IMG/VR virus record: IMGVR_UViG_3300044991_001618 | Span: 32,001-96,000 of that record | DNA length: 64,000 bases | Direction: 5' to 3' (one strand) | Source: a virus | Shown here: positions 2,491 through 48,872 of the stretch, in pieces | How the letters are laid out: each line of letters opens with the position of its first letter | How positions within the stretch are numbered: position 1 is the first letter of the stretch | Program-made: the position numbers and the translations under genes | Notes under the pieces: model-generated | Told to the model about the DNA's origin: nothing | The model's input: the letters and a program-made list of their open reading frames with translations, nothing else | Database searches by the model: none

Positions 2491-2503
2491 AGTTTTTTTA
2501 TTA

Positions 2504-2535
2504 CAAATATACTACAAGTTGAATTAAATAGCAAA
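2504..2535 (-). promoter_or_regulatory. Bacteroidota primary-sigma promoter (-33/-7)
   Basis: Minus strand TTTG-N20-TATATTTG, matching consensus TTTG...TAnnTTTG. Confidence 0.75.
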
Positions 2536-3090
2536 TTCTGTTTCATCCCAATCAGGATCCTCATTTAATATAATACCTTTAATATATCCAGGTTTAACCA
2601 TTTTTTTTAATTGATTTTCAGTGTATTTGGTTAATTTTGTGTAAGTTATGTTTATTCCATCATCAACTTTCAATCCTTTTGGTAATGATTGTAATTTGTA
2701 ACAATGATTTAAATATAATGTACCATTAACTTTTAATCCTTCTGGTAATGATTCAAGTTTTTCACAGCCATATAAATCCAAATCACCCCCAACTTTCAAT
2801 AGTTCTGGTAATGATTTTATATTTGAATGTTCTAAAGATAACTCGCCCCCAACTTCCAAGTCTTCTGGTAATGAAGTTATTTTTGAATAATCTAAATTCA
2901 AATTGCCACTAACTTTCAATCCTTCTGGTAATGAAGTTATTTTAAAATTTGATAAATCCAAATCATCATTAACAATTAAATCTTCTTTTGTTAATGGTGA
3001 ACCATTTGTTATTTTCCATAAAAATGGAATTTTTGTACCATCTAACTTTTCAATAAAATTAAATATATTCTTTAGTGTTTCTTTTTCCAT
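2524..3090 (-). CDS. LRR array protein 1 (5 repeats, extended C-terminus)
   Basis: MEKETLK N-cap, LPxGLxV repeats, MVKPGYI C-cap. Confidence 0.9.
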   Translation of the reverse strand: MEKETLKNIFNFIEKLDGTKIPFLWKITNGSPLTKEDLIVNDDLDLSNFKITSLPEGLKVSGNLNLDYSKITSLPEDLEVGGELSLEHSNIKSLPELLKVGGDLDLYGCEKLESLPEGLKVNGTLYLNHCYKLQSLPKGLKVDDGINITYTKLTKYTENQLKKMVKPGYIKGIILNEDPDWDETEFAI

Positions 3091-3494
3091 TATCTAATTA
3101 TATTATTTATATATCCAGGATTAACCATTTGCCTTAATTCCTCAGTTGAATATTTTGTTAATGGTGTATTTTTAATAAACAAACGACCCCAAACTTTCAA
3201 CCCTTTTGGTAATGATGTTATATTTGAATGTCCCAAATCCAAATCCTCCCCAACTTTTAATCCTTCTGGTAATGATTGTATATTTTTACAACCATATAAA
3301 CTTAAAATATCCTCAACGTTCAATCCATCTGGTAATGATTCAATATCTGTTTCTGTTAAATCCAAATCCCCTTCAACAAATAACTCTTCATCTGTTAATG
3401 GTTCATTATTCATTAATTTCCACATAAATGGTTTATCCTTATTTTCTTCTTCTTCAAGGAATGTAAATATCTTTTTTAGTGTTTCTTTTTCCAT
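3090..3494 (-). CDS. LRR array protein 2 (3 repeats)
   Basis: Same architecture; TAATG overlap with neighbours. Confidence 0.9.
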   Translation of the reverse strand: MEKETLKKIFTFLEEEENKDKPFMWKLMNNEPLTDEELFVEGDLDLTETDIESLPDGLNVEDILSLYGCKNIQSLPEGLKVGEDLDLGHSNITSLPKGLKVWGRLFIKNTPLTKYSTEELRQMVNPGYINNIIR

Positions 3495-4141
3495 TATCTT
3501 TCTATATTTCCAAGTATAAATCCTGGTTTAACCATTTTTCTTAATTCATTATCTGAAAATTTTGCTAACCCAGAGTCGTGAATGGCCAAATTACCATAAA
3601 CCTCCAACCCTTTTGGTAATGAAGTTAAATTTTTGCAACGCATTAAATCTAACAATCTATTAACTTTTAATCCTTTTGGTAAAAATCCTATCTCTGAATC
3701 CTCCAAAGATAATATACCAACTTCCATTCCTTCTGGTAATGATTCCAAATATGGGGTGGTATTTAAATTTAATTCACCTTCAATTTTTAATCCTTTTGGT
3801 AATGATTGTATTTGTGTATATGATAAATCCAAATCTAATTTAACTTTTAATCCTTTTGGTAATTTTCTTATTTCTGTATAATTTAAAACTAAATGCCCTC
3901 CAACTTCCAATCCTTCTGGTAATGATTTAATATCTGAATTTTGTAAAAACAAATCACCTTCAACTTTCAATCCTTCTGGCAATTCTTCTATCTCTAAATC
4001 TGATAAATTCAAATCACCTTTAACATGTAAATCATCTTCTGTGAATGGAAAACCATTTGACCATTTCCACCTAAGTGGCGTATTCCTATTATCCTTCTTT
4101 TCAAGGAAATTAAATATCTTCTTTAATGTTTCTTTTTCCAT
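3494..4141 (-). CDS. LRR array protein 3 (7 repeats)
   Basis: Same architecture; TAATG overlap. Confidence 0.9.
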   Translation of the reverse strand: MEKETLKKIFNFLEKKDNRNTPLRWKWSNGFPFTEDDLHVKGDLNLSDLEIEELPEGLKVEGDLFLQNSDIKSLPEGLEVGGHLVLNYTEIRKLPKGLKVKLDLDLSYTQIQSLPKGLKIEGELNLNTTPYLESLPEGMEVGILSLEDSEIGFLPKGLKVNRLLDLMRCKNLTSLPKGLEVYGNLAIHDSGLAKFSDNELRKMVKPGFILGNIER

Positions 4142-4605
4142 TATCTATATATATATCTATTTAAAAAACTAGGCTCAACCATTTTTATTAATTCATCATC
4201 TGAAAATTTTGCTAATGGTGTTCCACCAATAAACAAATTTTGCCCAACTTTCAATCCTTTTGGTAATGATGCTATTTCAGAGTAGGATAAATCCAAATCA
4301 ACCCCAACTTCTAATCCTTCTGGCATAGAAGTTATTCTTGTGTTTGATAAATCTAAATGTCTCCCAACTTTCAATCCTTTTGGTAATGATTTAATATCAG
4401 AAAATTGTAAATACAAGTCACCTTCAACATATAAATTATCTGGCAATGTTTCTATCCCTGAATCTGAAAAATCCAAATCACCTTTAATATGCAAATCATC
4501 TTCTGTTAATGGTTCACCACTTGACCATTTCCATAATAATGGTGCTCTTATTTCATCATTCTTTTCAAGAAATTTAAATATCTTCTTTAATGTTTCTTTT
4601 TCCAT
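4141..4605 (-). CDS. LRR array protein 4 (4 repeats)
   Basis: Same architecture; TAATG overlap. Confidence 0.9.
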   Translation of the reverse strand: MEKETLKKIFKFLEKNDEIRAPLLWKWSSGEPLTEDDLHIKGDLDFSDSGIETLPDNLYVEGDLYLQFSDIKSLPKGLKVGRHLDLSNTRITSMPEGLEVGVDLDLSYSEIASLPKGLKVGQNLFIGGTPLAKFSDDELIKMVEPSFLNRYIYR

Positions 4606-4608
4606 TAT

Positions 4609-5031
4609 CTATCCTTTCTTCCACTTTCCACCCAATTTCTTATACCTTTTTGCCGCAGCACCATTACAATATGCGCTTGGGCATACTTTATACCTAGACC
4701 TTGCCCAACTCAAACATTGACTCCATAACTTGGGATTTGTTGGTTTATTCTTTTTTTCCTTTGCTTCTGTTATGTTCTGGCTATCCCTATTTTCAAATTC
4801 ATTCATCATAAAATCAAAAACTTGATCCAAGTTTTCTTTTGCAACTGTCACATGGTCATCAGCCCAATCATGGCCATTGGTCAACAATTCATTAATTTCA
4901 TCAGGTTGAAATTCAAGCAATAATTCACATTGTCTTTTAATTTGTTTTAAGTTTCCAAAAAACATATAATTTTCTGTTGCTTGCTCATTTATTGCATTCT
5001 TAACAATTTTTTTAATTACTGGATGTATCAT
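4609..5031 (-). CDS. Conserved viral hypothetical protein with C-terminal DUF5872-like basic domain
   Basis: PTNPKLW...PSAYCNGAAAKRYKKLGGKW motif; N-terminal NYMFFGNL...HDWADDH domain. Confidence 0.6.
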   Translation of the reverse strand: MIHPVIKKIVKNAINEQATENYMFFGNLKQIKRQCELLLEFQPDEINELLTNGHDWADDHVTVAKENLDQVFDFMMNEFENRDSQNITEAKEKKNKPTNPKLWSQCLSWARSRYKVCPSAYCNGAAAKRYKKLGGKWKKG

Positions 5032-5046
5032 ATCTTATTTTTTATT

Positions 5047-5053
5047 ATAAATA
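5047..5053 (-). promoter_or_regulatory. Candidate late promoter core TATTTAT
   Basis: 15 nt before ATG 5031; would drive LRR genes 1-4. Confidence 0.5.
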
Positions 5054-5170
5054 TCATTATTCTTTATTTTGATTATGGCTCTCATATTTTGATTTTAAGG
5101 GACTTTTTGTTTTAGCCTATTACTATGTCATCTTTATTAAAATCTGCTGTTGTGGTTAAATTGTATGTGG

Positions 5171-5710
5171 TTATATCCTAATTATTCTACCTATACGCCC
5201 AGGTTTAACCATTTCTCTTAATTCAGCATCTGAAAATTTGTCTAAACTATCTCCAACACTCACGGCTAAATATCCATTAACTTCCAATCCTTTTGGTAAT
5301 CTTTTTATTGGTGTATCCATTATTGATAACCAAAGGTCAATTACTAGCCCTTCTGGTAATGAAGTTATTTTTGTATTATGCAAATACAAAGAAGCACCAA
5401 TTTTAATATCATTTGGTATGTTTTTTATAATTGAATGCGATAACTCCAGAGAACCATCAACTTTTAACCCTTTTGGTAATTCTTCTATTTTTGAAAATCT
5501 AGTAATCATTCTACCTTTAACTTCCAAATTATCTGGTAATGATTTTAAAGTTGAATCTGTTAAATCTAAATCACCATTAACAATTAAATCTTCTTTTGTT
5601 AGGGGATCACCAAGTTTTAATTTCCAAATAAAGGTATCTCTATCTTTATGTTTTTTGTTTTCTTTCTTTTCAAGGAAATCAAATATATTTTTTATTGCTT
5701 CTTTTTCCAT
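5171..5710 (-). CDS. LRR array protein 5 (5 repeats)
   Basis: Same architecture; first 25 aa identical to protein 6. Confidence 0.9.
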   Translation of the reverse strand: MEKEAIKNIFDFLEKKENKKHKDRDTFIWKLKLGDPLTKEDLIVNGDLDLTDSTLKSLPDNLEVKGRMITRFSKIEELPKGLKVDGSLELSHSIIKNIPNDIKIGASLYLHNTKITSLPEGLVIDLWLSIMDTPIKRLPKGLEVNGYLAVSVGDSLDKFSDAELREMVKPGRIGRIIRI

Positions 5711-6318
5711 TATCTAATTATTTGCTCCTTTATAAATCCAGGTTTAACCATATTTCTTAATTCTTCATCAGAAAATTTTACTAATGGTGATCCACTTATA
5801 ATTAAAATCCCCCTAACTTTCAACCCTTTTGGTAATGATGTTAAACTTGTGCAATTTTCTAAATACAAATCACGGCCAACTTCCAATCCTTCTGGCAAGG
5901 ATGTTAAACTTGTGCAATTTTCTAAATCTAAATTATGCGCAACTTTCAATCCTTTTGGTAAAGATATTAAATTTGTGGAATTTTCTAAATATAAAGACGC
6001 TCCAAGTTCTAATCCTCTTGGCAGTGAAATTAAATCTTCACAACCTTCTAAATCTAAACGACCCCCAACTTTTAAGTTATCAGGTAATGATTTAATAGAT
6101 GAATAATTTAAAATCAAATAACCACCAACTTTCAACCCATCTGGTAATGAGGTTATTTTTGAATATGATAAATCCAAATTACCTTTTACATTTAACTCTT
6201 CTTCTGTTATTGGTTCATCAAATTTTAATTTCCAAATAATGCTATCCCTATCTTTATGTTTTTTATTTTCTTTCTTTTCAAGGAAATCAAATATATTTTT
6301 TATTGCTTCTTTTTCCAT
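5710..6318 (-). CDS. LRR array protein 6 (6 repeats)
   Basis: Same architecture; internal duplicated LENCTSLTS repeat. Confidence 0.9.
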   Translation of the reverse strand: MEKEAIKNIFDFLEKKENKKHKDRDSIIWKLKFDEPITEEELNVKGNLDLSYSKITSLPDGLKVGGYLILNYSSIKSLPDNLKVGGRLDLEGCEDLISLPRGLELGASLYLENSTNLISLPKGLKVAHNLDLENCTSLTSLPEGLEVGRDLYLENCTSLTSLPKGLKVRGILIISGSPLVKFSDEELRNMVKPGFIKEQIIR

Positions 6319-6797
6319 TATCTAATTATTTTACCATTTATAAACCCATCTGGTTCAACCATTTCTCTTATTTTTTCATCTGAAAGTTTTGCTAATGGAG
6401 TTTTTACAATATGTAAATTACGTTCAACTTTTAAACCTTTTGATAATGTTTCTATATCTGAATATGTTAAATCTAAATCGCGACCAACATATAAATCACC
6501 TGGCAAGGATTTGAAACTTGTCCATTCAAAATTCAAATCACCCTCAACAAATAATTTTTCTGGGAATGTTTTTAAACTTGAGAACCGAAAATCAGCATTT
6601 CCTATAACTTTTAACCCTTTTGGTAAATGTTGTATATTTATGCCAGATATATCCAAATCGCCTCTAACAATTAAATCTTCTTTTGTTAATGGTTCATTAA
6701 ACATAAATTTCCACCTTAAAGTTCCTTTGTTTTTATGTTTTTTATTGTCTTCTTTTTCAAGAAAATCAAGTATATTTTTTAGTGTTTCTTTTTCCAT
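6318..6797 (-). CDS. LRR array protein 7 (4 repeats)
   Basis: Same architecture. Confidence 0.9.
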   Translation of the reverse strand: MEKETLKNILDFLEKEDNKKHKNKGTLRWKFMFNEPLTKEDLIVRGDLDISGINIQHLPKGLKVIGNADFRFSSLKTFPEKLFVEGDLNFEWTSFKSLPGDLYVGRDLDLTYSDIETLSKGLKVERNLHIVKTPLAKLSDEKIREMVEPDGFINGKIIR

Positions 6798-7267
6798 TAT
6801 CTAATTATATTTCCTTTAAATGAACCATTATTTAAATTTTTATTTCTTCTTATTTCAGCATCTGTATATTTTTTGGCAAGGAAGGATTCTCCTATATATA
6901 AATTACCACCAACATATAAATTTTTTGGGATTTCTTCTATATCTGAATGTCTAAAATACAAATCACCCCCAACATATAAATTGTCTGGTAATGATTCTAT
7001 ATTTGTATGGGATAAGTTAAAACTATCCTTAACATATAACCCTTCTGGTAATGAGTTTATTTCTGATCCCAACAACCACAATTTACCTTCAACTCTCATC
7101 CCATTAGGTAATGAGGTTATAGTTGTAAATTCCAAATTTAAATTGCCTTTTATATTTAAATCCTCTTTTGTTAGTTCATTATTTACCCATTTCCATAAAA
7201 ATGGTGTTTTGATATCATCATTTTCTTCAAGGAAATCAAATATTCTTTTTAATGTTTCTTTTTCCAT
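6797..7267 (-). CDS. LRR array protein 8 (4 repeats)
   Basis: Same architecture; C-cap shared with protein 9. Confidence 0.9.
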   Translation of the reverse strand: MEKETLKRIFDFLEENDDIKTPFLWKWVNNELTKEDLNIKGNLNLEFTTITSLPNGMRVEGKLWLLGSEINSLPEGLYVKDSFNLSHTNIESLPDNLYVGGDLYFRHSDIEEIPKNLYVGGNLYIGESFLAKKYTDAEIRRNKNLNNGSFKGNIIR

Positions 7268-7740
7268 TATCTAATTATATTTCCTTTAAATGAACCATTA
7301 TTTAAATTTTTATTTCTTCTTATTTCACCATCTGTATATTTTTTGGCGAGGGGGGTCTCTTCTATATCTAATTCACCACCAACGTATAAATTTTTTGGTA
7401 TTTCTCCTATATTTGAATATTTAAACCATAAATCACCCCCAACATATAAATTGTCTGGTAATGATTCAATATATGTATGTGATACATCCAAACTACCCTT
7501 AACATATAGCCCTTCTGGTAATGTTTTTATTGCTGATGCAAATAATGACAAATCACCTTGAACTCTCAATCCCTCTGGTAATGAGGTTATTGCTGAATGA
7601 TTTAAAATTAAATCCCCATCAAAATTTAATTCATCTTCTGTAAATGGGTGATTAATTTTTACTTTATAAGCAAAAGGTTTTGGTCTATTTTCCTCTTTCT
7701 CAAGGAATTCAATTATTTTTTTTAATGTTTCTATTTCCAT
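7267..7740 (-). CDS. LRR array protein 9 (4 repeats)
   Basis: Same architecture; N-cap like protein 11, C-cap like protein 8. Confidence 0.9.
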   Translation of the reverse strand: MEIETLKKIIEFLEKEENRPKPFAYKVKINHPFTEDELNFDGDLILNHSAITSLPEGLRVQGDLSLFASAIKTLPEGLYVKGSLDVSHTYIESLPDNLYVGGDLWFKYSNIGEIPKNLYVGGELDIEETPLAKKYTDGEIRRNKNLNNGSFKGNIIR

Positions 7741-8279
7741 TACTCTCTTAATATTCCTTTTATAAATCCAGGTTTAACCATTTCTTTTAATTCAGCATTA
7801 GAAAATTTGGATAAACTATCATTACTATTTAAAACTAAATAACCCTTAATTATCAATCCTTTTGGTAATGAAGTTATTTTTGTTTTCTGCAAATACAAAG
7901 AACCACCAATTTCAATATCATCAGGTATATTTTTTATTTTTGAGTTCCTTAAATTCAAATTACCACCAACTTTCAATCCTTTTGGTAGTGATTCTATATT
8001 TGAACTTGCTAAAGATAAATAATCCCCAACTTCTAACCCTTCTGGTAATGAGACTATTGCCGAACAACCCATTAAATTAACCCAACCCTTAACTCTTAAT
8101 CCTTCTGGTAATGATGTTACTTTTGTATATGATAATTCCAAATTACCATTAATATTTAATTCATCATATGTTAATTCATTAAATATAACCTTCCATTTAA
8201 AACTACCTTTATCTCGGGGCATTTTATTTTCTTCCTTTTCAAGAAAATCAAGTATTTTTTTAAATGTTTTATTTTCCAT
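7740..8279 (-). CDS. LRR array protein 10 (5 repeats)
   Basis: Same architecture; C-half resembles protein 5. Confidence 0.9.
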   Translation of the reverse strand: MENKTFKKILDFLEKEENKMPRDKGSFKWKVIFNELTYDELNINGNLELSYTKVTSLPEGLRVKGWVNLMGCSAIVSLPEGLEVGDYLSLASSNIESLPKGLKVGGNLNLRNSKIKNIPDDIEIGGSLYLQKTKITSLPKGLIIKGYLVLNSNDSLSKFSNAELKEMVKPGFIKGILRE

Positions 8280-8282
8280 TAT

Positions 8283-8696
8283 CTACATATTTCCTATTAT
8301 TTCTCCTATATAACCATTTGGCTTTATCATATTCAATAATTCATTGTCTGAAATTTCTGTAAATTTTGTTCTGTAAATATATAAACTACCCCCAACTTTC
8401 AAGTCTTTTGGTAATGAGGTTAAACCCCAACACCCAGCTAACCATAAATTACCCTCAACTTCCAATCCTTCTGGTAATGTTTTTATATCTGAGTCTGTTA
8501 AATCTAAAACACGCCCAACTTTCAATCCTTCTGGTAATGAAGTTATTTTAAAATTTGATAAATCCAAATTACCTTCAATATTTAAATCTTTTTCTGTTAA
8601 GGGTTCATTATTTTTTACTTTATAAGCAAAAGGTTTTTTTCTATTTTCTTCCTTCTCAAGGAATTCAAGTATTCTTTTTAATGTTTCTTCTTTCAC
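8283..8696 (-). CDS. LRR array protein 11 (3 repeats, GTG start)
   Basis: Same architecture; GTGA overlap with protein 12. Confidence 0.88.
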   Translation of the reverse strand: MKEETLKRILEFLEKEENRKKPFAYKVKNNEPLTEKDLNIEGNLDLSNFKITSLPEGLKVGRVLDLTDSDIKTLPEGLEVEGNLWLAGCWGLTSLPKDLKVGGSLYIYRTKFTEISDNELLNMIKPNGYIGEIIGNM

Positions 8697-9289
8697 AATC
8701 TTGATATTTTTTCTTTTATAAATCCAGGATAAACCATTTCTCTTAATTGTCCATCTGTGTATTTTCGTAATGGGGTATTTTCTATATACAATACCCCCCT
8801 AACTTCTAACCCTTTTGGTAATGATGTTATTTTTGTATCTTTTAAATTCAAATATTTACCAACTTTTAATCCTTCTGGTAGTGAAATTAAATCTTTGCAA
8901 GAATATAAATCCAAAAAACCCCTAATTTTTAAGTCATTAGGTAATGAACTAATGGATGTATAATTTAAATGCAAATTACCACCAACTTTCAATCCTTTTG
9001 GTAATGAGGTTATTTTTGAATATGCTAAAAACAAATGCTTCCCAACTTTTAATCCTTCTGGTAATGATTGTATTCTTGAAAATGTTAAAATTAAGTCCCC
9101 CTCAACTTTTAACCCTTCTGGTAATGATTCTATACTTGAGTACATTAAATTCAAATCATCTTTTATATTTAATTCATCTTTTGTTAATGGTTTATTAAAT
9201 AATAACTTCCACCTTAAATTATTTTTAGGTATTACCCCTTCCTTTTCTTCAAGAAAATCAAGTATTTTTTCAATTGTTTCTTTTTCCAT
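8693..9289 (-). CDS. LRR array protein 12 (6 repeats)
   Basis: Same architecture. Confidence 0.9.
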   Translation of the reverse strand: MEKETIEKILDFLEEKEGVIPKNNLRWKLLFNKPLTKDELNIKDDLNLMYSSIESLPEGLKVEGDLILTFSRIQSLPEGLKVGKHLFLAYSKITSLPKGLKVGGNLHLNYTSISSLPNDLKIRGFLDLYSCKDLISLPEGLKVGKYLNLKDTKITSLPKGLEVRGVLYIENTPLRKYTDGQLREMVYPGFIKEKISRL

Positions 9290-9996
9290 TATCTAACTAT
9301 TTTTCCTTTTATAAATCCAGGTTGAATCATCTTTCTTAATCTATAATTACTAATTTCATCTAAATGGGAAAGATTCAACATTATAGATCCATAAACTTTC
9401 AATCCTTTTGGTAATGAGGTTAAATCTGTTAGTCTTAAATCCAAATCACCACCAACTTTTAAACCTTCTGGCAATGATTGTATATTTTTACAACCAAATA
9501 ACACCAAATCTTTCCTAACTTCAAGTCCTTCTGGTAATGAAGTTATTTTTGTATTATTTAAAACTAAATGCCCTCCAACTTTCAATCCTTCTGGTAATGA
9601 AGTTATTTTTGTATTATTTAAATACAAATCCCTACCAACTTTCAATCCTTTTGGTAGCAAGGTTATATCTGTATTAGATGAAAACAAATCACCACCAACT
9701 TCCAATCCTTCAGGTAATGATGTTATTTTTGTTGAACCTAAATTCAAATTACCCCCAACTTTCAAACCTTCTGGCAATGAGGTTATTTTTGATCTTCTTA
9801 AATCGAAATTACCACCAACTTTCAAACCTTCTGGTAATGAGGTTATTGTTGTTTCATAAAACCACAAATTACCTATAACATCTAAATCTTCTTTGGTTAT
9901 TGGCTCATTATTTAATATTTTCCATTTAAATGGTGCTCTATGTTCTCCTTTCTCTTCAAGGAATTCAAATATTCTTTTTAATGTTTCTTTTTCCAT
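9289..9996 (-). CDS. LRR array protein 13 (8 repeats)
   Basis: Same architecture; most homogeneous repeats. Confidence 0.9.
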   Translation of the reverse strand: MEKETLKRIFEFLEEKGEHRAPFKWKILNNEPITKEDLDVIGNLWFYETTITSLPEGLKVGGNFDLRRSKITSLPEGLKVGGNLNLGSTKITSLPEGLEVGGDLFSSNTDITLLPKGLKVGRDLYLNNTKITSLPEGLKVGGHLVLNNTKITSLPEGLEVRKDLVLFGCKNIQSLPEGLKVGGDLDLRLTDLTSLPKGLKVYGSIMLNLSHLDEISNYRLRKMIQPGFIKGKIVR

Positions 9997-10003
9997 TATC
10001 TAA

Positions 10004-11506
10004 TTATTTTTTATTTATAATAAAAAAGTGCAATTGTTTTTTATAAGTGGTAATCTCCCCAGCAATTTGAACCTTTAAATCAACAAAATATTTATTTGGT
10101 ATTTTATCTCTTGTGTCAAAATTAAAATAATATTCATTTGGTGTTCTGTTAAATTCTGTCCAATCTTGAACTTGAACTTGGGTTTCCCCCTCCTTAACAT
10201 AAACACGATAAAATCCTTTAATGTTTGTTAATAATTCACTTGTGCTATATGCTTTTTTAATTATAACCCCAATCTTTCTAACATCAGTATTGAGTATTTT
10301 TTCCCCTTGCATAATGTTATAGAAATCAAAATTATATGTTTCACTTTCTGTTGTCTTTGTTCCAGTTTTAATTCGATTATTTACATCATATAATACAAAT
10401 TCATTTTCAACATTGGGTAATGTAATTCCATTTAAGGTCATCCCACTCCAAACATCAGTAAATACCATAGGTGCTGTATATCCACTAAATACATTTGGTA
10501 CAGATACCTCATACACACCCTTGGTAATTAATTTTGTTGATAAGTTTGTGCAACCAGTAACAACATTCCCATCATTGTCAAATATATTAACAATTGGATT
10601 GTTATCCAAATTTGAATACGAATCTTCATCTGTTACATAAAGATATAATTTATTTACCCTATTCTTAACAAAATTATTTCTATCATCCTTAATCAAATCA
10701 TCATAAGTTGTTAATAGATAAGGTTCATAAAATGTCTGGGTGTGCCTTGAAAAAAAGCCAACAGAATAGCTTTCCGTTAACCCTGTTGCATTTTCATAAG
10801 ATGGGGTATAAGCAATGCCCCAACCAGAATAAGATGTGGTAGAACCGCTTAAAATGGCGTTTATTTCATTTGTCATGTTAAATGAAACATCTTCATTACC
10901 AAATTCAAAATGTTTGGTATCAAGAATGGTCAATCCGCTATAATTAACATTTCCCGTATTTTTATTGTTATAAATACCAGGTTCAGTCCATCCGCTTAAT
11001 GTTTGAGCATTATACCAATTTGAGGGGGTTGATGCAAATGAATTATCATTCTTTATAACTAGGGGATATTTCGCCCCTGACCCTGAATTTAAGTTTTTTG
11101 AATAATCTGTATAATCATAACCTACACCTTCATCCCAATTTTGAACATACCCTGTGCTACCACTACTCAATGGAATTCTAAATAAAACCAAATCAAAGGA
11201 AGATGCTCTACGTTTTTGATTTGGCATTTTCCCATTTAATAAGGATTCATCAAAAGATGCTGAATTTTTTAAGACTAATGTATGTGTGACACTTGACAAT
11301 GAACCGCTAAAAATGATATCATCATTAACTTTATCAATTAGAGGTTCTAAATCTAAATCAAAAATTAGCCTTGTTGGTCCATATGCTGGGATTAAGTAAT
11401 CTGTTGCACCATAAGTTAATTCAATAACAGGGTTTCTACCTGTATTTATTTTTGAATTTGCAATTAAAGTGTTGTTTCTATTAAAATAAGATAGATGAAT
11501 TGACAT
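10004..11506 (-). CDS. Putative virion structural protein
   Basis: 500 aa, S/T/G/N-rich beta-type composition, next to spike gene, TATTTAT upstream. Confidence 0.55.
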   Translation of the reverse strand: MSIHLSYFNRNNTLIANSKINTGRNPVIELTYGATDYLIPAYGPTRLIFDLDLEPLIDKVNDDIIFSGSLSSVTHTLVLKNSASFDESLLNGKMPNQKRRASSFDLVLFRIPLSSGSTGYVQNWDEGVGYDYTDYSKNLNSGSGAKYPLVIKNDNSFASTPSNWYNAQTLSGWTEPGIYNNKNTGNVNYSGLTILDTKHFEFGNEDVSFNMTNEINAILSGSTTSYSGWGIAYTPSYENATGLTESYSVGFFSRHTQTFYEPYLLTTYDDLIKDDRNNFVKNRVNKLYLYVTDEDSYSNLDNNPIVNIFDNDGNVVTGCTNLSTKLITKGVYEVSVPNVFSGYTAPMVFTDVWSGMTLNGITLPNVENEFVLYDVNNRIKTGTKTTESETYNFDFYNIMQGEKILNTDVRKIGVIIKKAYSTSELLTNIKGFYRVYVKEGETQVQVQDWTEFNRTPNEYYFNFDTRDKIPNKYFVDLKVQIAGEITTYKKQLHFFIINKK

Positions 11507-11517
11507 TTTTTTATTTA

Positions 11518-11524
11518 ATAAATA
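11518..11524 (-). promoter_or_regulatory. Candidate late promoter core TATTTAT
   Basis: 11 nt before ATG 11506; would also drive LRR genes 5-13. Confidence 0.5.
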
Positions 11525-13033
11525 TCAATTAATCCTAATTTTTTTGTTTAATATTTTTGTTGTTGCAAGTGAAAACTCACGTAATAGATTTTGAATTGTT
11601 GATCCATCTTCTGTAACAGAAACTGGTGCCTCCCCGGGAAATGGATGTGCATGTGTAACCAAAAATCTAATGATTAAATTAATCAATTCAAGAAGTTCTT
11701 CTCCCCTAATAATTGAAGATGTATTGGGGTCAATACTATCAACAATTTTATCATTATCAATACCATATAAAGTATCTGTTAAATCAATTTTGGATTTGTT
11801 AGGTGAAGGAGTAGTATTGTGGCTTAATAAATAAATTGTGTCAGCACCAATTAAAGCAGATGAATTTTCTTCGTTTATTATTGTATTACCAATAACAACA
11901 CCACTTTCAGTAAAAGTAGGAACAATTGTACTATCTTTTGAATAAATAAATCCTGAACCCCTTTTATTTGAAAATTTATCAAACTTTATTTCATTATATA
12001 TGTCAATAACATTTGTAGATGGTGTTTTAGATAAAAATGTTCCACTCAATCTTAAATAAGTTGAATATCCTGGTCTAAAAAATATTGGGAATTTTATTTC
12101 ATTTTCAAAAAATAATTGTGTTCCATCATCAAGTTTTACACCTGAATTGCATTTTTGAATAAAATCATTAATAAATTTAATTGTATTTTCTTTACTTAAT
12201 TGATTAAACTTAACCCTACATCTAAATATTTTTAAATCATCAATAGTACTATTAATATCCAAATTTTTAATAGCTACTCTTTCATTTTGAATTAAATTAT
12301 ATAAATTAATAAATCCATCAAATTTATCATTTGTAGCATCAGGATTTTGGATAACCCATTCAATCAAGAATTTTGTTCCTAATGTTTTTTCTCTTTCAAG
12401 TTCAATAACTTCTGGGGGATTTTTTACTTTCCTTGATTTAAACTGTGATACTTGAACAAATGACCTATTATAATTTGGTGTAGGAAACTCATTTGGATTC
12501 ATTGACCCCTTGTATTTACCTGCCCTAATTATAACATCATCCTCTTTAACTAAAATGTCAGATGATCCCCTACCAATAATACCAGTATCATTAGGTTCAA
12601 CAAATATGCCTTTAACTTTTGATTTCCTATATGAACCATCAAGATTTTTTAATGTTAATGTTCTTTTAAATCTTCTACCTGAACCAGTTAATATACGAGA
12701 TTCTGTCACAGTATTAGAATCCGCTCGCATAGGAGAATTAAAATCAGATTGAATATAATATTGATTATCAAACTTAAAATCTTTATTTGCATAAATAACC
12801 AATATTCTTTCTCCAGCACTCAAGGGAGCATTTATATAATAAGGCAATAATGGTTTAAATATGAAAGGATCCCTATCCCCCCAGATGTCTGTTTTTTCAT
12901 TAAAATTTGGGTTACTAATTGAATTTAATATATCATCATTTCTATCTGAATCAACCCTAGCCCTAACCCTATTTAATCCTAATGGGTCTTCAATATCAAT
13001 TATCTCCGCTGGAAATAGTACTCTATTGTCCAT
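11525..13033 (-). CDS. Baseplate hub/spike protein (gp5/VgrG-type N-terminal OB fold, C-terminal HxH tip)
   Basis: IIDIEDPLGLNRVRAR N-terminal motif; C-terminal RGEEL...THAHPFPG. Confidence 0.75.
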   Translation of the reverse strand: MDNRVLFPAEIIDIEDPLGLNRVRARVDSDRNDDILNSISNPNFNEKTDIWGDRDPFIFKPLLPYYINAPLSAGERILVIYANKDFKFDNQYYIQSDFNSPMRADSNTVTESRILTGSGRRFKRTLTLKNLDGSYRKSKVKGIFVEPNDTGIIGRGSSDILVKEDDVIIRAGKYKGSMNPNEFPTPNYNRSFVQVSQFKSRKVKNPPEVIELEREKTLGTKFLIEWVIQNPDATNDKFDGFINLYNLIQNERVAIKNLDINSTIDDLKIFRCRVKFNQLSKENTIKFINDFIQKCNSGVKLDDGTQLFFENEIKFPIFFRPGYSTYLRLSGTFLSKTPSTNVIDIYNEIKFDKFSNKRGSGFIYSKDSTIVPTFTESGVVIGNTIINEENSSALIGADTIYLLSHNTTPSPNKSKIDLTDTLYGIDNDKIVDSIDPNTSSIIRGEELLELINLIIRFLVTHAHPFPGEAPVSVTEDGSTIQNLLREFSLATTKILNKKIRIN

Positions 13034-17193: not shown

Positions 17194-18240
17194 TTATAAT
17201 TTGTTTAGTTGCTCTTGAAATGCGTTTATTCTATTATCAAAATATGAATTAAAACAATTGATAACTGTTGATGTGAATTTATCCTTATCTTTATACATAT
17301 TAGATGTCTTTTCTATCTCTTCATATAGTTCAGGTGTTATACTGTCTTCCAACCAATTCTGAATAAATTCGGCAATATAATCAACCATTTTTAATTTGTC
17401 TTGTATCCAAATGCCGTTTTTATCATTCATCCATTCAGGTATTAAATCTGGTATTCTACCAATAACTGGAATACCACAAGCCATAGATTCTAATGGATAT
17501 GTTCCAAAACCACTAATATCATCAATCCAAACGCTTAAAAAACAATTCTTTAAAGAATTAGCAAATTCACTTTGGCTAAGACCCCTCATATCCCTAAATG
17601 TGAACCACCTAAATTGGGGGTATTTTAAATAAAATTGTTTAACAATATTAATTGTATCAGTCTGCTCTCTTGTGTGAACAGCAATAATTGGCATTGGGGG
17701 TACTTTTGGTTTATCAAATAAATCTGAAATTACTGGGGTAATAATGTCATAAGACATTTTCTTCATATATGAATCTAGTTCATCCTTTTGTTTTTCAGAA
17801 GTTGTTATACATTTTAAAAATCCTAATGAAGGCCAACTTTGCCCTGGTTGTAATGTATCTAAAACATAAGAGTAAGATTGCATCAATACAATTTTACCAC
17901 AAGGCAAATCTTTTATTTGTTCCATAATAAATCCATATATTTCTGGAAGTACAATAAAATCTTCTGGACTAATTTCCAAATTCTCCCCCTCAATTGAACG
18001 GTGGGGTAATGAGGTCATATAACTTTCGTCAAGCCAAGAAGCAACACCTGAATAATCTTTCTTTTCGTGTAATATAATAGGATTGAAGCCGTTATCTTTT
18101 AATGATAATGCCACATCGTATATATATTTTATGGATGCCCTAGCATTTCCTTTTGTGTCTTGAGCCACAAAATAAATCCTTGATTTCTTATCTTTTAAGA
18201 TATTTAAAGAATTTTCAATTTTTGGTTTAATATCATTCAT
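17194..18240 (-). CDS. GT-B (GT4-like) glycosyltransferase
   Basis: GFGTYPLESMACGIPVIG motif. Confidence 0.75.
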   Translation of the reverse strand: MNDIKPKIENSLNILKDKKSRIYFVAQDTKGNARASIKYIYDVALSLKDNGFNPIILHEKKDYSGVASWLDESYMTSLPHRSIEGENLEISPEDFIVLPEIYGFIMEQIKDLPCGKIVLMQSYSYVLDTLQPGQSWPSLGFLKCITTSEKQKDELDSYMKKMSYDIITPVISDLFDKPKVPPMPIIAVHTREQTDTINIVKQFYLKYPQFRWFTFRDMRGLSQSEFANSLKNCFLSVWIDDISGFGTYPLESMACGIPVIGRIPDLIPEWMNDKNGIWIQDKLKMVDYIAEFIQNWLEDSITPELYEEIEKTSNMYKDKDKFTSTVINCFNSYFDNRINAFQEQLNKL

Positions 18241-32306: not shown

Positions 32307-32968
32307 AATTCAAAATTAATTTTTTTTCTGTTATTGTAAAGATTTGTATCATAATTTAAATCTTGATAATTTTTTTTATGAATTTCATCTTGTTTTCCAA
32401 ATCCCCAATCTGGGTGTTCATGTTTTATGATGACATCATCAAAATATGTTTGCTTACCTAATAAATTTGCAACACTCATAAATTCATTATCACACCATGT
32501 TGATTTATATCCAGGATAATAAATGTAATTAAATTTTTCATAATATCTTTTGCCCAAAATACAAATTGTATTTAATTCACTCTTTTTAAACCCATCATTA
32601 AACCACAGAACCCCATCTGTATTAGGATATATATCTTTCATTTTATTAATGATAATTTCATCATATCCTTTAATTTGGGGAATCATATCATCTGATGCTA
32701 AAAGCAAAATATCCCAATCTTTTGCATAGTCCATATCTCTATTAACTGCATGTACTTTTGAAGAACTTTGACCAACCACAACCTTGCAATTTTTAAAAGT
32801 TGATAAAATTTCCAAACAATCAGAATTGTTCATTTCGATATCATCCTCATCAATTGTTATTAAAAACAACATATTATCCAAATTATTTGCAAGAGTTTGG
32901 TATATTTTTAAAACATTAAAAAATTTAATTTTTCTATTCCTTGTTGGAAATTTTACCAATATCTTCAT
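32303..32968 (-). CDS. GT2-like glycosyltransferase (paralog of 47553-48212)
   Basis: KFPTRNR, LASDDM, WCDNEF. Confidence 0.7.
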   Translation of the reverse strand: MKILVKFPTRNRKIKFFNVLKIYQTLANNLDNMLFLITIDEDDIEMNNSDCLEILSTFKNCKVVVGQSSSKVHAVNRDMDYAKDWDILLLASDDMIPQIKGYDEIIINKMKDIYPNTDGVLWFNDGFKKSELNTICILGKRYYEKFNYIYYPGYKSTWCDNEFMSVANLLGKQTYFDDVIIKHEHPDWGFGKQDEIHKKNYQDLNYDTNLYNNRKKINFEL

Positions 32969-34602
32969 TATATTATTTTAATATATTCATCCTTTATTTG
33001 TTTTGCAACTGTTGAACCAAAATATTTGTCCTCCAACTCCTCTTGATTTGGGGGTAAGTGAAATTCTTTACTCAAAATATCTCCAATATCATTAACTTCA
33101 TAAATCCAACCACCTTTTCCACACATCCAGCCTTCAATTGTTGTTCTACCTAACATTATACCAGCAGTTTCAACACATTTTTTTGTATATTTTTCAATGT
33201 TCCAAGTTGATTTAAAATGTTTAACATGAGAATCATTTAATAATTCAGATAAGTAATTTGATGAACTATCTCCAACCAACCAAAGTTCAAGATTTTTTTC
33301 TTTGGTATAAATAACTAAGTCTCTTATTGTTTTCTCTCTTAAATAATCAATTGTTCCAACAAATAAAACATAATTATCATTTGATGATTTATTTAAATTA
33401 AATCTATTCTCATCAATTGGGTTATATATAACTGAAATATCTTCCAATGGAATCCTAAAATCATTTTCAATATAATCTGCTATACTAGGTCTAATTGCTA
33501 CATATTTTTTTATGGATGGATGTAATATTGGTTCTTCTACAGAAATAACCTCTGAGTGGATGGTATATAGTTTTGGGATACCCGGATATAATTGACATAT
33601 TTTTTCAGCAATTGGTTTATGCTGAATATGAATCACATCATAATTAACTGGTGCAACAGAATATAGCATATTCTCTTCACTAACTTTAAAACCCTCCTCA
33701 GTATTGACACCCCACTTACCATCACCCAATTTAAAACCTGGGGGTTCATTTATGTGAAAAACATTAATTCCAAGATTTGCTGCCATCTTTGTTAATGACC
33801 CCCCTATATCTGAAACAACAGTAACATTGCAATTTTGATTTAATAAGTTTCTAGCTAACTCATATACGTATAATTCAGATCCTGTGAAGTTTTTAAAATA
33901 TAAGCAAGATATTAAAACATTTAATTTTCTTTTCCCATTATGGGGTAATTTAACTGGCAAGTTATCTGCATACTTTTCAGCAAATTTAATTTTATTTTCT
34001 TCCCATTTCTCATTTGTTTGTCCAATTGATAAGTGAGTTATTTTTATATTATATAAAACGCCAATATTAACCCCTTGCATATAGTTTTCAAAACAAAATG
34101 ATATATCATAGAAATGAAATCCATCAAAATCTTCAATAAAATTGCTCTTAATTCTATCTTTATGAATTGCCATAAACAAGCCATCAACAATTACCACCTT
34201 TTCTGCCTCATTACCTAATGAGGTTGAATACTTGGATTCCCATTGTTTACCCTCATGCTTATGGTTAACAATACCAAGCATCTTATTTCTTTCTTCCCAC
34301 CACATACCAGATGATGGCATACTAGTTGTGCCAGCAATACCCAATATGCCAAAATTGGTTTTATCAAAGTGCTTAATTAATTTATTCCCCCAACCTTTAT
34401 CTTCAAAAATGATGTCATCATGACAAAGAACAACAATGTTGTTCTTTGCCTTATTTAGTATTTCATTATAAACTTTTGCCAATGATTTTTCACCATTGTT
34501 AATTACCTCAATAATTTCCACATTTTTTGGGCCAACTGTTTTCTTAACTTGCTCAATAAATGCTGGATTGCTCTTTCTTGTTGAAAATCCTATTGTTATC
34601 AT
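32968..34602 (-). CDS. Two-domain glycosyltransferase (GT-A/StrF-like + GT-B)
   Basis: SLAKVYN...CHDD...VDGLFMA...FHFYD, then GSELYVYELA...GRTTIEG; likely start 34602. Confidence 0.75.
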   Translation of the reverse strand: MITIGFSTRKSNPAFIEQVKKTVGPKNVEIIEVINNGEKSLAKVYNEILNKAKNNIVVLCHDDIIFEDKGWGNKLIKHFDKTNFGILGIAGTTSMPSSGMWWEERNKMLGIVNHKHEGKQWESKYSTSLGNEAEKVVIVDGLFMAIHKDRIKSNFIEDFDGFHFYDISFCFENYMQGVNIGVLYNIKITHLSIGQTNEKWEENKIKFAEKYADNLPVKLPHNGKRKLNVLISCLYFKNFTGSELYVYELARNLLNQNCNVTVVSDIGGSLTKMAANLGINVFHINEPPGFKLGDGKWGVNTEEGFKVSEENMLYSVAPVNYDVIHIQHKPIAEKICQLYPGIPKLYTIHSEVISVEEPILHPSIKKYVAIRPSIADYIENDFRIPLEDISVIYNPIDENRFNLNKSSNDNYVLFVGTIDYLREKTIRDLVIYTKEKNLELWLVGDSSSNYLSELLNDSHVKHFKSTWNIEKYTKKCVETAGIMLGRTTIEGWMCGKGGWIYEVNDIGDILSKEFHLPPNQEELEDKYFGSTVAKQIKDEYIKII

Positions 34603-34633
34603 ATTGTTATTATTTTTTATTTCATTGAAAAAA

Positions 34634-36301
34634 CTAGCAATTATCAATGTAAACCATCACTTCATTATTGTAAGGAATGAATGTATTGTTTAAATCGTGG
34701 ACAATTTTACCATTAATCTTAATTTTCCATTTTTTATAGTGTTTTTTATTACAAGATGTCCACATACCTGTTTTAATTTCTGAAGAATAAATAACATTGT
34801 CATTCTCGTCCAAAAATTCAACATAGTAATTTTTTAACGTATTGCCCTTAATCTCTAATTGTGGAGTATCCAAAAAAGAAATGTGGATTTCATTTTTTTT
34901 CTTATTTTGATATTTTTCATTTAAGAATTCTTTTTTGGTTGCTAAAAACCAATTCCAAGGATTATTTATTTTTTGTAAAGAAAAATTTTTTGATTCTAAA
35001 ACACTTAAAGATTTTTCTGTTTTTGATTTCCATTCTGGAATCATCCAATCATGGAAACTTATAGCTATTTGGTCAATATTTTCAAAATCTTGATTATCAA
35101 AACTATCTAATAAATCATATTCTGCACCTTCAATATTGATTTTCAATAATGAAATTTTGTTTATTGAGAATTCTTTACAAAAATTTTTCCATGTTTTAAC
35201 TTTTACCTCTTCCCCATCCTCTGAGTTAATCATAGATGTGTTTATACCTTTGTTTTTCATTTTTATGATGCCATCTTCTTTACCAATTACTCCTTTGAAA
35301 AGCTCTGTGTGTCTAATTTGATTTTCAAAGGGGTCGACACCAATTACTCTTTTCTTCCCAATAAAAAAATTACTCCAATCCCAATTCAAACAACCTATAT
35401 CCACTACATCCCCATTATGAATTAAACATCTGTCATTTACTGTACTATAATCTTGACCTGGAATAGTTTGGATTAAATTTTGTCTACATGTGATCATATC
35501 CGCAACATAATTAATTTCTTTTTCATGTAAATCAAAAGGTCTTACACAATGACAATCTAAGTAAAATCCTTCTTTTAGCAGTTTTTCATCATAACTACCA
35601 TCACGTGCGTTAAGTGATTTCATTTGGTTGTCAACATAGTCTATTGGAAAATGCCACTTTTCAATTCTGTCTTTAAGAAAAAATCCTTCCTCATAACCGC
35701 GTCTTAATTTATGTACCTGAAACCTATCCGAGAATTCTTCAATTTTTTTGGTTAAATATATTTCGTCACCATACCACTTTAATATTTTTTTGTATTTAAA
35801 TTTACTTAACCGATCAAAAAAATCTGAGAAACTGCCTTCCAAATTAAAAATTTCTTCAAATATTTTACCCTTTGCTGCGTTATAACACATTGCAAAAATA
35901 TTAGAATCAAACCATCCTTTAGAATCATTCCTTTCTAAATCATACGCATCACTAGAATATACCACAATGCTGTCCTCATCAAAATCTTTTATTGTGTTTT
36001 GAAAATAGTCATAACTAAACAACATCATATCAATGTCAGAAATTAGACAAACTTCATCTGGAAAAAACTTAGTTCCATATAGTCTATAGAATATAGCTTG
36101 AATACTTATTTGAATTTGTGGCAGGGCTTTGACTTCCTTAACCAATCCGTTTCCATCAAAATAAAAATCAGTTTCTTTTTCTCCTATTTTAAATAATACT
36201 GGAGTTGCTCCTAATTGCTTTTTACAAACCTTGGCAACCACAGGCCAATAGTCTTGGTAATATGAATCATCACACGACATTATTAGTTTTGCAACTTTCA
36301 T
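34634..36301 (-). CDS. Multidomain protein: GT-A-like + FkbM-like methyltransferase + C-terminal small domain
   Basis: ISDIDM; VVDIGC...GVDP...LLKINIEGAEY...ISFH; C-terminal EIKG...YYVEFLD...WKIKI. Confidence 0.65.
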   Translation of the reverse strand: MKVAKLIMSCDDSYYQDYWPVVAKVCKKQLGATPVLFKIGEKETDFYFDGNGLVKEVKALPQIQISIQAIFYRLYGTKFFPDEVCLISDIDMMLFSYDYFQNTIKDFDEDSIVVYSSDAYDLERNDSKGWFDSNIFAMCYNAAKGKIFEEIFNLEGSFSDFFDRLSKFKYKKILKWYGDEIYLTKKIEEFSDRFQVHKLRRGYEEGFFLKDRIEKWHFPIDYVDNQMKSLNARDGSYDEKLLKEGFYLDCHCVRPFDLHEKEINYVADMITCRQNLIQTIPGQDYSTVNDRCLIHNGDVVDIGCLNWDWSNFFIGKKRVIGVDPFENQIRHTELFKGVIGKEDGIIKMKNKGINTSMINSEDGEEVKVKTWKNFCKEFSINKISLLKINIEGAEYDLLDSFDNQDFENIDQIAISFHDWMIPEWKSKTEKSLSVLESKNFSLQKINNPWNWFLATKKEFLNEKYQNKKKNEIHISFLDTPQLEIKGNTLKNYYVEFLDENDNVIYSSEIKTGMWTSCNKKHYKKWKIKINGKIVHDLNNTFIPYNNEVMVYIDNC

Positions 36302-43155: not shown

Positions 43156-43210
43156 TTGACTTTTATTCATAAATATTCACTAAATACTATTTATTATAAT
43201 AATAATATAA

Positions 43211-46268: not shown

Positions 46269-46278
46269 TTTAATATAT

Positions 46279-47553: not shown

Positions 47554-48212
47554 TGAAATTTTTATTCAAATTTCCATCCAGAGGGAGGTCAAATAAATTC
47601 AAGGAAACATTGCAATTACATTTAATGCATTTGTCAAATAAAAATGAATACAAATTCATATTCACTTTTGATGAAGATGATGATACAATGAATAATGATG
47701 ATATTAAAAACTTTATAAAAACTTTAAATATTGATTTTAAAATATTTTATGGTCAAAGCAAAAATAAAATAGAAGCAATAAATGCAAATTTAAGTGATGA
47801 GGATTATGATATTTTAATTTTAATAGCTGATGATATGATTCCACAAGTTATGGAATATGATGAGATAATAAGAAACATTATTGAAACATCAGAAAATGGT
47901 ACAGATACTATTATACATTTCAATACAACTAGATGGGCAAATCTTCTTGATGTTTGGTGTATAATGGGAAAGAAATATTATGATAGATTTAAATACATTT
48001 ATAATCCTGTGTATAAGAGTATTTATGCGGATAATGAATATACTGAGGTTGCTCAAATTTTAGATAGATACATTTTTTCTGAAATCATAGCATTCAACCA
48101 TAATTGGGATTCAGATGAAACAACCTTAAAAAGTTGGGGGCATAATCAAGAAGATGAGAATATTTATAATTCAAGAAAAAATGAAAATTTTGATTTAAAA
48201 AATGGTAAATAA
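47553..48212 (+). CDS. GT2-like glycosyltransferase (paralog of 32303-32968)
   Basis: KFPSRGR, IADDMIP, YADNEY. Confidence 0.7.
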   Translation: MKFLFKFPSRGRSNKFKETLQLHLMHLSNKNEYKFIFTFDEDDDTMNNDDIKNFIKTLNIDFKIFYGQSKNKIEAINANLSDEDYDILILIADDMIPQVMEYDEIIRNIIETSENGTDTIIHFNTTRWANLLDVWCIMGKKYYDRFKYIYNPVYKSIYADNEYTEVAQILDRYIFSEIIAFNHNWDSDETTLKSWGHNQEDENIYNSRKNENFDLKNGK

Positions 48213-48870: not shown

Positions 48871-48872
48871 AT

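Follow-up and report, generated by a model that had tools for sequence, protein, structure and literature searches.

A conserved stop/start joint in the leucine-rich repeat gene arrays of a freshwater jumbo phage, probably inherited through tandem duplication

Unequal crossing-over and gene conversion drive the evolution of tandem multigene families such as the NLR/LRR clusters of plants. In T-even phages the internal-protein (IP) locus is reportedly polymorphic, as Repoila and colleagues are said to have described in EMBO J in 1994. In T4-type phages, modular shuffling and mini-circles are mediated by PeSLs, which are intergenic promoter-plus-terminator cassettes flanking unrelated ORFans (Arbiol et al., 2010, PMC2839356; Comeau et al., 2014, PMC4122927). 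The locus described here differs from the plant clusters in that its leucine-rich repeat (LRR) family lies in a phage genome and consists of very small genes.

The DNA analysed (the window, 64,000 nucleotides) comes from a jumbo phage genome fragment of 113 kb, whose completeness is estimated by CheckV at ~36%; a search of the phage collection with the DNA gave no match. Across the whole record, 33 small LRR paralogs of 134–235 aa were found in four arrays, and this variable family, which belongs to freshwater jumbo phages, takes up ~16% of the record. HMM searches matched 306 ORFs in 78 loci, and the family numbers roughly 2,200 members overall. An LRR solenoid is predicted (pLDDT 92.9, pTM 0.84), with SspH1, IpaH, a Leptospira LRR and VLR chains as the best PDB matches and one chain of 8z5u, a flagellar-motor cryo-EM entry, as a further one. 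The model fits leucine-rich repeat proteins built of short bacterial LPX-type repeats; Pfam LRR matches stayed under the curated thresholds. Adjacent genes are paralogs with conserved ends (alignment A1; conservation profile). Genome-wide, upstream regions are A/T-rich and lack Shine-Dalgarno sequences, the usual Arg codon is AGA and the usual stop is TAA. The features of the array, all on the minus strand, are as follows.

10004..11506, minus: 500-aa gene upstream of the array, with 63 homologous loci; native last codons and TAA stop
9994..10012, minus: array entry 1; TAA at 10004–10006, 7-nt spacer TTAGATA at 9997–10003, followed by the first LRR gene's ATG
5171..9996, minus: sub-array 1, nine LRR paralogs (from ORFs, joints and alignment A1)
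9289–9996, 8693–9289, 8283–8696, 7740–8279 and 7267–7740, minus: first five genes of sub-array 1
6797–7267, 6318–6797, 5710–6318 and 5171–5710, minus: last four genes of sub-array 1
5032..5170, minus: sole intergenic spacer in the array, with the promoter-like ATATTTAT of the 140-aa gene; conserved in loci L002 and L003
4609..5031, minus: non-LRR 140-aa gene, weakly DUF5872-like; its stop is the TAG from the junction remnant
4603..4611, minus: array entry 2, TAG-ATA-ATG; 6-base remnant, left end of the inserted LRR block
2524..4605, minus: sub-array 2, four LRR paralogs (4141–4605, 3494–4141, 3090–3494 and 2524–3090)
2491..2523, minus: ancestral intergenic region at the right edge of the inserted block, placed by alignment to L003 and L065, the empty alleles

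The joints of sub-array 1 are 1-base overlaps, 4-base overlaps or a 3-nt spacer. In sub-array 2, gene 2524–3090 carries an acidic C-terminal extension in place of the usual tail, and the intergenic region after it contains a Bacteroidota-type promoter-like TAnnTTTG ahead of gene 2104–2490. The 500-aa gene has the promoter-like ATATTTAT 18 nt ahead of its ATG. Its predicted protein is rich in beta-sandwiches; a fold search returned only generic Ig-like tandem domains with TM-scores below 0.2, so that no family or fold is assignable and the first-pass label of a structural gene found no confirmation, and sequence searches of Pfam, PHROGs and the PDB with this and the 502-aa upstream protein gave no match. 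In distant relatives, a homolog of the 140-aa gene lies directly 3′ of the 500-aa gene. Since the promoter-like motif was found only before arrays or before the gene preceding them, and never inside, the arrays look like single transcription units. Stop and start codons overlap or abut with no promoter between them, the layout of a translationally coupled operon, and this spacing suggests that translation is coupled as well.

The first-pass annotation had described AGA-TAA overlapping ATG as the joint of most genes, and this holds for 8 of the 11 LRR-to-LRR joints between 2524 and 9996 (9289, 7267, 6797, 6318, 5710, 4141, 3494 and 3090). The other three are TAG-ATA-ATG (8279), GAG-TAA/ATG (7740) and a diverged GTGA overlap (8696); the second entry, which follows the non-LRR 140-aa gene, is also TAG-ATA-ATG, as had been noted. 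The 16-mer said to be common to the junctions at 5710, 6318 and 9996 indeed has exactly three copies in the 113 kb of the record, at window positions 5708–5723, 6316–6331 and 9994–10009. A record-wide check for further copies of the motif, which the same annotation had called for, found that all 13 AGATAATGGA sites are LRR gene starts.

The joint can be read directly from the genes that it connects. AGATAATG consists of the AGA codon for the final Arg of the conserved C-cap (Ile-Ile-Arg) and the TAA stop, which shares one base with the ATG of the next gene's conserved N-cap; it is no separate element, and is instead the inherited coding sequence of tandemly duplicated LRR genes. The three forms of the joint seen in the first pass are the same DNA in three reading frames, because the 13 bases before the ATG stop every frame, with one stop triplet per frame at −12, −8 and −2. 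Stops in every frame lie within 13 nt of the start at 12 of the 33 family genes, compared with 2 of 104 others. Conservation around family starts runs from −11 to past +35 and is thus not confined to the joint. Across the 78 loci, 169 distinct LRR-to-LRR joints were counted: AGATA is present in 77, in 63 of these in frame as Arg-stop, and −1 overlaps (85) and −4 overlaps (25) together make up 110.

A different explanation is that the conserved bases are retained for a function of their own as an RNA or DNA signal; an example would be a re-initiation context in hosts that do not use Shine-Dalgarno sequences. Such a signal would fit the A/T-rich upstream regions, and the bases do persist where the upstream frame has shifted, as at 8279, at 4605 and in several +3/−8 variants in relatives, as well as in an empty allele described below (L142). 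A general initiation context, a possibility that had been raised as a refuting observation, is ruled out by the distribution of AGATA, which stands ahead of 14 of the 33 family starts, far above chance expectation, and ahead of none of the 104 other genes. A signal restricted to the family is unlikely too, for AGATA is missing from 19 of the 33 family genes here and from 92 of the 169 distinct internal joints overall, and it is absent from the first genes of other arrays and, in five relatives, from entry 1. Moreover, codon usage (AGA, TAA, ATA/ATT) is enough to predict the bases from the conserved Ile-Ile-Arg tail.

The two entries, where the array meets unrelated genes, were compared with the corresponding sites in related contigs. 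At entry 1, the same 500-aa gene runs into the array through a plain TAATG overlap in five relatives of the LRR-bearing clade (L001, L002, L003, L065 and L066), and this genome alone carries 8 extra bases. The proposal of a leftover LRR tail at this position holds in part: of the 13 bases preceding the ATG only 8 are not native to this site, and AAATAA (Lys-Lys-stop) is the gene's own end, kept in relatives without any LRR genes. Since this genome is nested in the tree among the five plain-TAATG relatives, the 8 extra bases are derived, and their sequence identifies them as a remnant of an LRR tail. Consistent with this, L002 has an additional 161-aa LRR gene ahead of the ortholog of the window's first gene, and a deletion between a 7–9-nt match of the 500-aa tail with the LRR tail would yield the window sequence with the exception of one base.

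Coincidence in A/T-rich DNA, as an explanation of the 16-mer at this entry, has next to no probability. Six of its bases, in the Lys-Lys-stop region, are native to the upstream gene, and that part of the match is coincidental; the other 8, however, are identical to the family junction and missing at entry 1 in all five related contigs, and the 16-mer is found nowhere else in the record beyond its three junction copies. The comparison with relatives refutes a coincidence of the whole. The entry 1 form was not found in other viral or metagenome contigs and rests on one record; an assembly artefact is unlikely, because the sequences that meet here share only 7–9 nt, a match too short to mislead an assembler.

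At entry 2, the empty-site alleles that had been proposed as a check were found in L003 and L065, and neither contains the remnant. The filled alleles (this record, L002, L107 and L099) all begin with the same 6-base remnant, and in L002 the last LRR gene is followed by the ancestral stop and the sequence that originally lay behind it. From these alignments entry 2 is an insertion of an LRR block plus 6 junction bases. The block was inserted just ahead of the old stop codon, contrary to the suggestion that units integrate just after the stops of upstream genes. At both entries, then, the bases before the ATG contain genuine LRR tail leftovers, as first supposed, and relatives have the same sites without them.

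A third site provides a further case. In L116/L141 and in L109, ~40 nt of the C-cap are fused to a 355-aa gene in two different frames, and in L142 an LRR gene has been lost between two 7-nt near-repeats with a 13-nt remnant retained. A reading of the 355-aa gene of L116 as an ordinary non-LRR gene, followed by a TAA and spacer as in the window, was rejected after comparison with L109 and L142, because the last ~40 nt of the gene derive from the LRR C-cap. Five other entry types are remnant-free, for example those behind the 233-, 195-, 206- and 300-aa genes. Across independent entries, therefore, the remnant measures 0, 6, 8 or ~40 bases.

These lengths bear on the mechanism first suggested for the arrays, namely gene-sized circles bounded inside the junction and integrated after late-gene stops by a dedicated recombinase, as in integrons. 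Several observations would suit such cassettes: junction bases are kept at three independent heterologous entries, L141 and L142 differ by exactly one gene with the junction left in the empty allele, the genes inside arrays lack promoters, and both window-entry breakpoints lie within ~15 nt of the ATG, an outcome that a targeted mechanism would also give. A fixed boundary inside the junction is nevertheless contradicted by the variable remnant length, by whole-gene breakpoints in 330–370-nt homology and by identical blocks that cross the ATG. The possible boundary ranges are disjoint, with at least 8 bases kept at entry 1 and at most 6 at entry 2; entry 1 is remnant-free in the closest relatives, the entry 2 block precedes the old stop codon, inserted blocks do not end at a junction on their right side, and internal indels break within long homology.

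No machinery of such a mechanism was found either. The first-pass annotation saw no recombinase in the window, and none was found in the rest of the record or in five relatives: tyrosine (PF00589) and serine (PF00239) recombinases were absent from this record, a fragment (~36% complete) in which enzymes may be missed, and from the relatives (G001–G005), which include a 270-kb record rated 90% complete. A RecA/UvsX-like match was obtained in one relative only, below threshold. No attC-like inverted repeat recurs at the joints, and array genes overlap or lie no more than 7 nt apart, leaving no room for an attC-like element. With no recombinase or attC found in these records and no fixed crossover position, an integron-like or circle-integrating mechanism does not account for the arrays, and we regard site-specific cassettes as very improbable.

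Changes inside the arrays follow homology. The window and its closest relative, L002, differ by indels comprising four genes, one gene and two repeats, and all the breakpoints lie in homologous tracts of 39 to ~370 nt; the alignments that overlap at these indels extend over ~330, ~370 and 70–200 nt. Gene 4141–4605 is flanked by a 39-nt identical direct repeat. Non-orthologous copies are mosaics of exact blocks of 43–108 nt across or next to the start codon, and identical blocks across the ATG include 60+15, 13+53 and 11+32 nt (upstream plus downstream). The three features tested for a tandem paralog array that evolves by unequal homologous recombination were all found.

We therefore favour, with a probability of roughly 0.78, a reading in which the joint was inherited by tandem duplication, the arrays change by unequal homologous recombination and their edges by microhomology-mediated events. 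The joint would have been fixed at the first tandem duplication of an ancestral LRR gene and copied with each later one. Unequal homologous recombination and gene conversion would act on the start tract (about −11 to at least +35), the C-cap and the repeat framework, and would thereby insert, remove and exchange entire genes as well as single repeats; the recombination enzymes involved are presumed. Where an array borders unrelated genes, rare imprecise (microhomology-mediated) recombination would leave a variable number of junction bases. Any upstream frame entering such a remnant would soon terminate, only a few bases from the LRR start, which would leave the upstream protein nearly intact and the LRR gene at a distance from a stop that permits coupled translation. 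The proximity of both window-entry breakpoints to the ATG may thus reflect microhomology together with a selective filter on breakpoints.

As the joint is most simply inherited and the arrays change by ordinary recombination, no new class of mobile element is needed. The filled and empty alleles provide three dated, base-level cases of LRR block gain or loss beside unrelated phage genes, which should help the study of why freshwater jumbo phages devote so much of a record to one LRR family. By analogy with mini-circles, the junction and N-cap tract, in which every reading frame is stopped within 12 nt of a start codon, might also act as a portable plug-in module, with recombination-made circles seeding LRR genes behind late-gene stops, where coupled translation would express them at once. 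We consider this improbable; if true, new arrays would be founded repeatedly across jumbo-phage genomes.

Among known systems, the plant NLR/LRR clusters share with the phage arrays neighbouring genes that are paralogs, close relatives that differ in the copy number of genes and repeats, breakpoints in homologous tracts and mosaic identical blocks. The phage joints differ in being overlapping stop and start codons, which makes the joint left by duplication a conserved coding sequence in its own right. Like PeSLs, the phage joints are short conserved gene-boundary sequences that offer portable homology for the insertion, deletion or replacement of single genes between close phages, and recombination of direct copies could in principle free gene-sized circles. 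Unlike PeSLs, they are coding (C-cap end plus N-cap) and flank paralogs only; neither a promoter nor a stem-loop of the PeSL type was found at array joints, and the arrays have no intergenic space inside. Integron cassettes resemble the array genes in being small, promoterless and in one orientation behind an upstream promoter, with gene content varying between relatives; integrons, however, possess IntI, attI and attC, whereas no IntI-type recombinase, attC or fixed crossover point was found here and the genes are paralogous. As at the T-even IP locus, variable small genes with a conserved 5′ coding leader, whose homology permits swapping, lie beside conserved late genes. The IP locus has a few unrelated bodies behind a common leader, whereas the phage family consists of dozens of true paralogs in four arrays. 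Finally, the one- or four-base overlaps at 110 of the 169 joints match, in their spacing, those of translationally coupled TAATG/ATGA genes. The three-frame stops beside the LRR start correspond to no described device and are a by-product of the tail codons.

The LRR family of the record (G000) comprises 33 small paralogs arranged in four arrays, together making up 15.6% of its DNA. The structure model of the first gene product of the array studied here gave a confident LRR solenoid (pLDDT 92.9), with the short-repeat LRR domains of SspH1 and IpaH among its top PDB matches; LRR matches in Pfam lay under the curated cut-offs, and the more than 2,200 metagenome relatives of the family are unnamed. 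In a sub-class of family genes (window 2524-3090; genome 8295-8798, 10193-10717 and 99691-100143) an acidic C-terminal extension replaces the usual tail; these genes have a spacer downstream instead of an overlap and tend towards array ends or breaks. G000 is a single IMG/VR virus record of 112,963 bp with 29% G+C, of which the window covers bases 32001-96000. CheckV puts its completeness at about 36%, and since related records reach 200-281 kb, it represents a jumbo phage fragment. A Bacteroidota host would be consistent with its A/T-rich start regions lacking a Shine-Dalgarno sequence, a TAnnTTTG-like promoter element, and genes for a SusC/TonB-type outer-membrane barrel, a family B DNA polymerase and glycosyltransferase islands.

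Window 2524-9996, minus strand: LRR array under study.
Window 9994-10012, minus strand: array entry 1, from a 500-aa gene into the first LRR gene.
Window 4603-4611, minus strand: array entry 2, from a 140-aa gene into an LRR gene.
Window 54901-58245, minus strand: 1114-aa protein with signal peptide, carboxypeptidase-regulatory-like domain and large outer-membrane beta-barrel (SusC/TonB-receptor-like).
Window 17194-18240, 32968-36301 and 45018-50546: glycosyltransferase/methyltransferase genes (GT1, GT2/GT4 fusion, GlcNAc-transferase PF11397, HtrL_YibB, FkbM-type).

On re-examination, everything that the first-pass annotation had stated about the sequence of the joints held. AGA-TAA overlapping ATG accounts for 8 of the 11 LRR-to-LRR joints in the window, the TAG-ATA-ATG form is found at joint 8279 and after the non-LRR 140-aa gene (4605), and at 9996, where the array follows the 500-aa gene, the sequence reads TAA, seven bases, ATG. 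A 16-nt junction sequence is present at 5710, 6318 and 9996 only. All 13 AGATAATGGA sites in the G000 record are LRR gene starts, and AGATA directly precedes the start of 14 of 33 family genes compared with 0 of 104 other genes; the motif is therefore family-specific, and not the general start context that had been named as a possible objection.

Alignment of the family showed conserved ends, an Ile-Ile-Arg tail and a Met-Glu-Lys-Glu N-cap, and the usual codons in G000 are AGA for Arg and TAA for stop. Across 78 loci, AGATA was found in 77 of 169 distinct LRR-to-LRR joints, 63 of these having an in-frame Arg-stop overlapping ATG. The 82 distinct joints with a one-base overlap show no island of nucleotide conservation at the joint; the conserved tract extends from -11 to past +35 and is the longest near-identical one common to the paralogs. 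The joint is thus shared coding sequence. Stop triplets occur in all three frames within the 13 bases before ATG (-12, -8 and -2), and each position serves as a real stop somewhere in the window; all frames are closed within 13 nt of the start in 12 of 33 family starts versus 2 of 104 others. These stops are a by-product of the LRR tail codons, and the three joint forms are the same DNA entered in three frames. At window 8693-8696 the joint has degenerated into a GTGA overlap, and gene 8283-8696 appears to begin with GTG; every other family gene in the window starts with ATG.

Window 9997-10009, 8280-8292 and 4606-4618, and every standard joint: 13-mers with stops in three frames.
Window 10024-10031, 5053-5060 and 43188-43195: examples of the promoter-like ATATTTAT.

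The promoter-like ATATTTAT lies 18-24 nt before many ATGs (about 20 gene starts), giving very short leaders. It precedes the 500-aa gene, the 140-aa gene and the leading gene in each of two other arrays, and was never found inside LRR arrays.

The first-pass annotation had inferred a unit boundary inside the junction, as for integron-like cassettes. Comparison with L002, a related locus whose 500-aa protein is 93% identical to that of G000, revealed three differences: four genes (about window 8973-7287), one gene (4141-4605) and two LRR repeats (within 3090-3494). In every case a stretch of one genome can be aligned at two positions in the other. At both gene indels this stretch is about 330-370 nt of L002, which matches the window twice; at the repeat indel the overlap amounts to about 70 nt of L002 and about 200 nt of the window. 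This places the breakpoints somewhere inside long homology. A 39-nt identical direct repeat spanning the ATG flanks gene 4141-4605, and further identical blocks likewise extend over the start codon, with 60 nt before it and 15 after, 13 and 53, or 11 and 32. No fixed boundary was seen, and these data show that the arrays of close relatives differ through events inside homologous tracts.

Homologs of the 500-aa gene are encoded in 63 viral contigs, and in the protein tree those that bear LRR genes group in a single clade (100% support), within which L003 branches first, then L065 and L066, then G000, L001 and L002. In distant relatives (L012, L013 and other loci) the 140-aa homolog (window 4609-5031) immediately follows the 500-aa homolog (window 10004-11506), whereas members of the LRR clade have 6-9 LRR genes between the two, together with a promoter-bearing spacer of 140 nt. 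All relatives without LRR genes have an intergenic region downstream of the 140-aa homolog. The search for empty sites, proposed earlier, succeeded at entry 2 within the clade: in L003 and L065 the last sense codon runs into the stop, behind which lie a short spacer and then the next gene's promoter-like element. In the filled alleles (G000, L002, L107 and L099) the LRR block follows the last sense codon directly, opening with a 6-base remnant of an LRR tail and ATG. As the old stop codon and spacer reappear behind the last LRR gene in L002, the block was inserted just before the old stop, not after it as had been proposed, and the TAG now terminating the 140-aa gene is supplied by the remnant. 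Only 2 bases are common to both edges of the insertion.

At entry 1, a plain TAATG overlap joins the 500-aa gene to the first LRR gene in all five relatives, with 8 extra bases in G000 only, a form known from this single assembly. The 16-mer here had been taken for a leftover LRR tail; the 8 extra bases agree with this, but the Lys-Lys-stop end is kept in distant relatives without any LRR genes, and that part is therefore native to the 500-aa gene. In L002, the window's first LRR gene has an ortholog (96% identical) that is preceded by an additional LRR gene of 161 aa. A match of 7-9 nt occurs in the tails of both the 500-aa gene and an LRR gene, and a deletion between the two copies reproduces the window entry bar one base, at which family members vary. 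Each relative has a different first LRR gene, indicating frequent turnover at this position; the usual exchanges would fall within the long N-cap homology and leave no trace. Two adjacent ~500-aa genes lie upstream of the array (window 10004-13033, minus strand), with zero matches in Pfam, PHROG and PDB sequence searches; the 500-aa protein model (pLDDT 71) is beta-sandwich-rich and matches generic Ig-like folds only.

A third site was found behind a 355-aa gene. L116 and L141 have a solo LRR gene there in the same TAA-seven-bases-ATG form, and the homolog in L109 ends in frame with a standard joint; alignment with LRR tails traced the last ~40 nt of both genes to an LRR C-cap, with the reading frame differing between the two. 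L142 (4015-4200) is the empty allele of L141 (4000-4680), lacking the LRR gene and keeping a 13-base remnant after the stop, and two 7-nt near-repeats, identical at 6 of 7 positions, lie at the ends of the stretch it has lost. Taken alone, this pair would also fit a cassette system. Searches of G000 (a fragment, about 36% complete) and five related records, one of 270 kb and rated 90% complete, revealed neither a tyrosine nor a serine recombinase; array genes overlap or lie no more than 7 nt apart, with no recurrent inverted repeat found at the joints; and remnant lengths vary over sites (0, 6, 8 and about 40 nt), with none at the entries behind four further genes, of 233, 195, 206 and about 300 aa. 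These comparisons show that the joints with unrelated genes arose independently of one another and imprecisely, with 2-9 nt of sequence in common.

We suggest that changes inside the array are driven by unequal homologous recombination and gene conversion, and that its edges may be products of microhomology-mediated recombination. A RecA-like match was sub-threshold and seen in one relative only. Selection would retain only edge events that spare most of the upstream protein and set a stop beside the LRR start, and the three-frame stops of the remnant may ease such events.

The LRR array shows none of the tested defining features of integrons. It resembles the PeSL elements of T4-type phages, whose homology-driven modular shuffling also yields mini-circles (PMC2839356), in that shuffling is modular and homology-driven; the recurring sequence here, however, is a coding one, with neither promoter nor terminator. 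The behaviour of the array matches that of tandem LRR multigene families evolving by unequal crossing-over.
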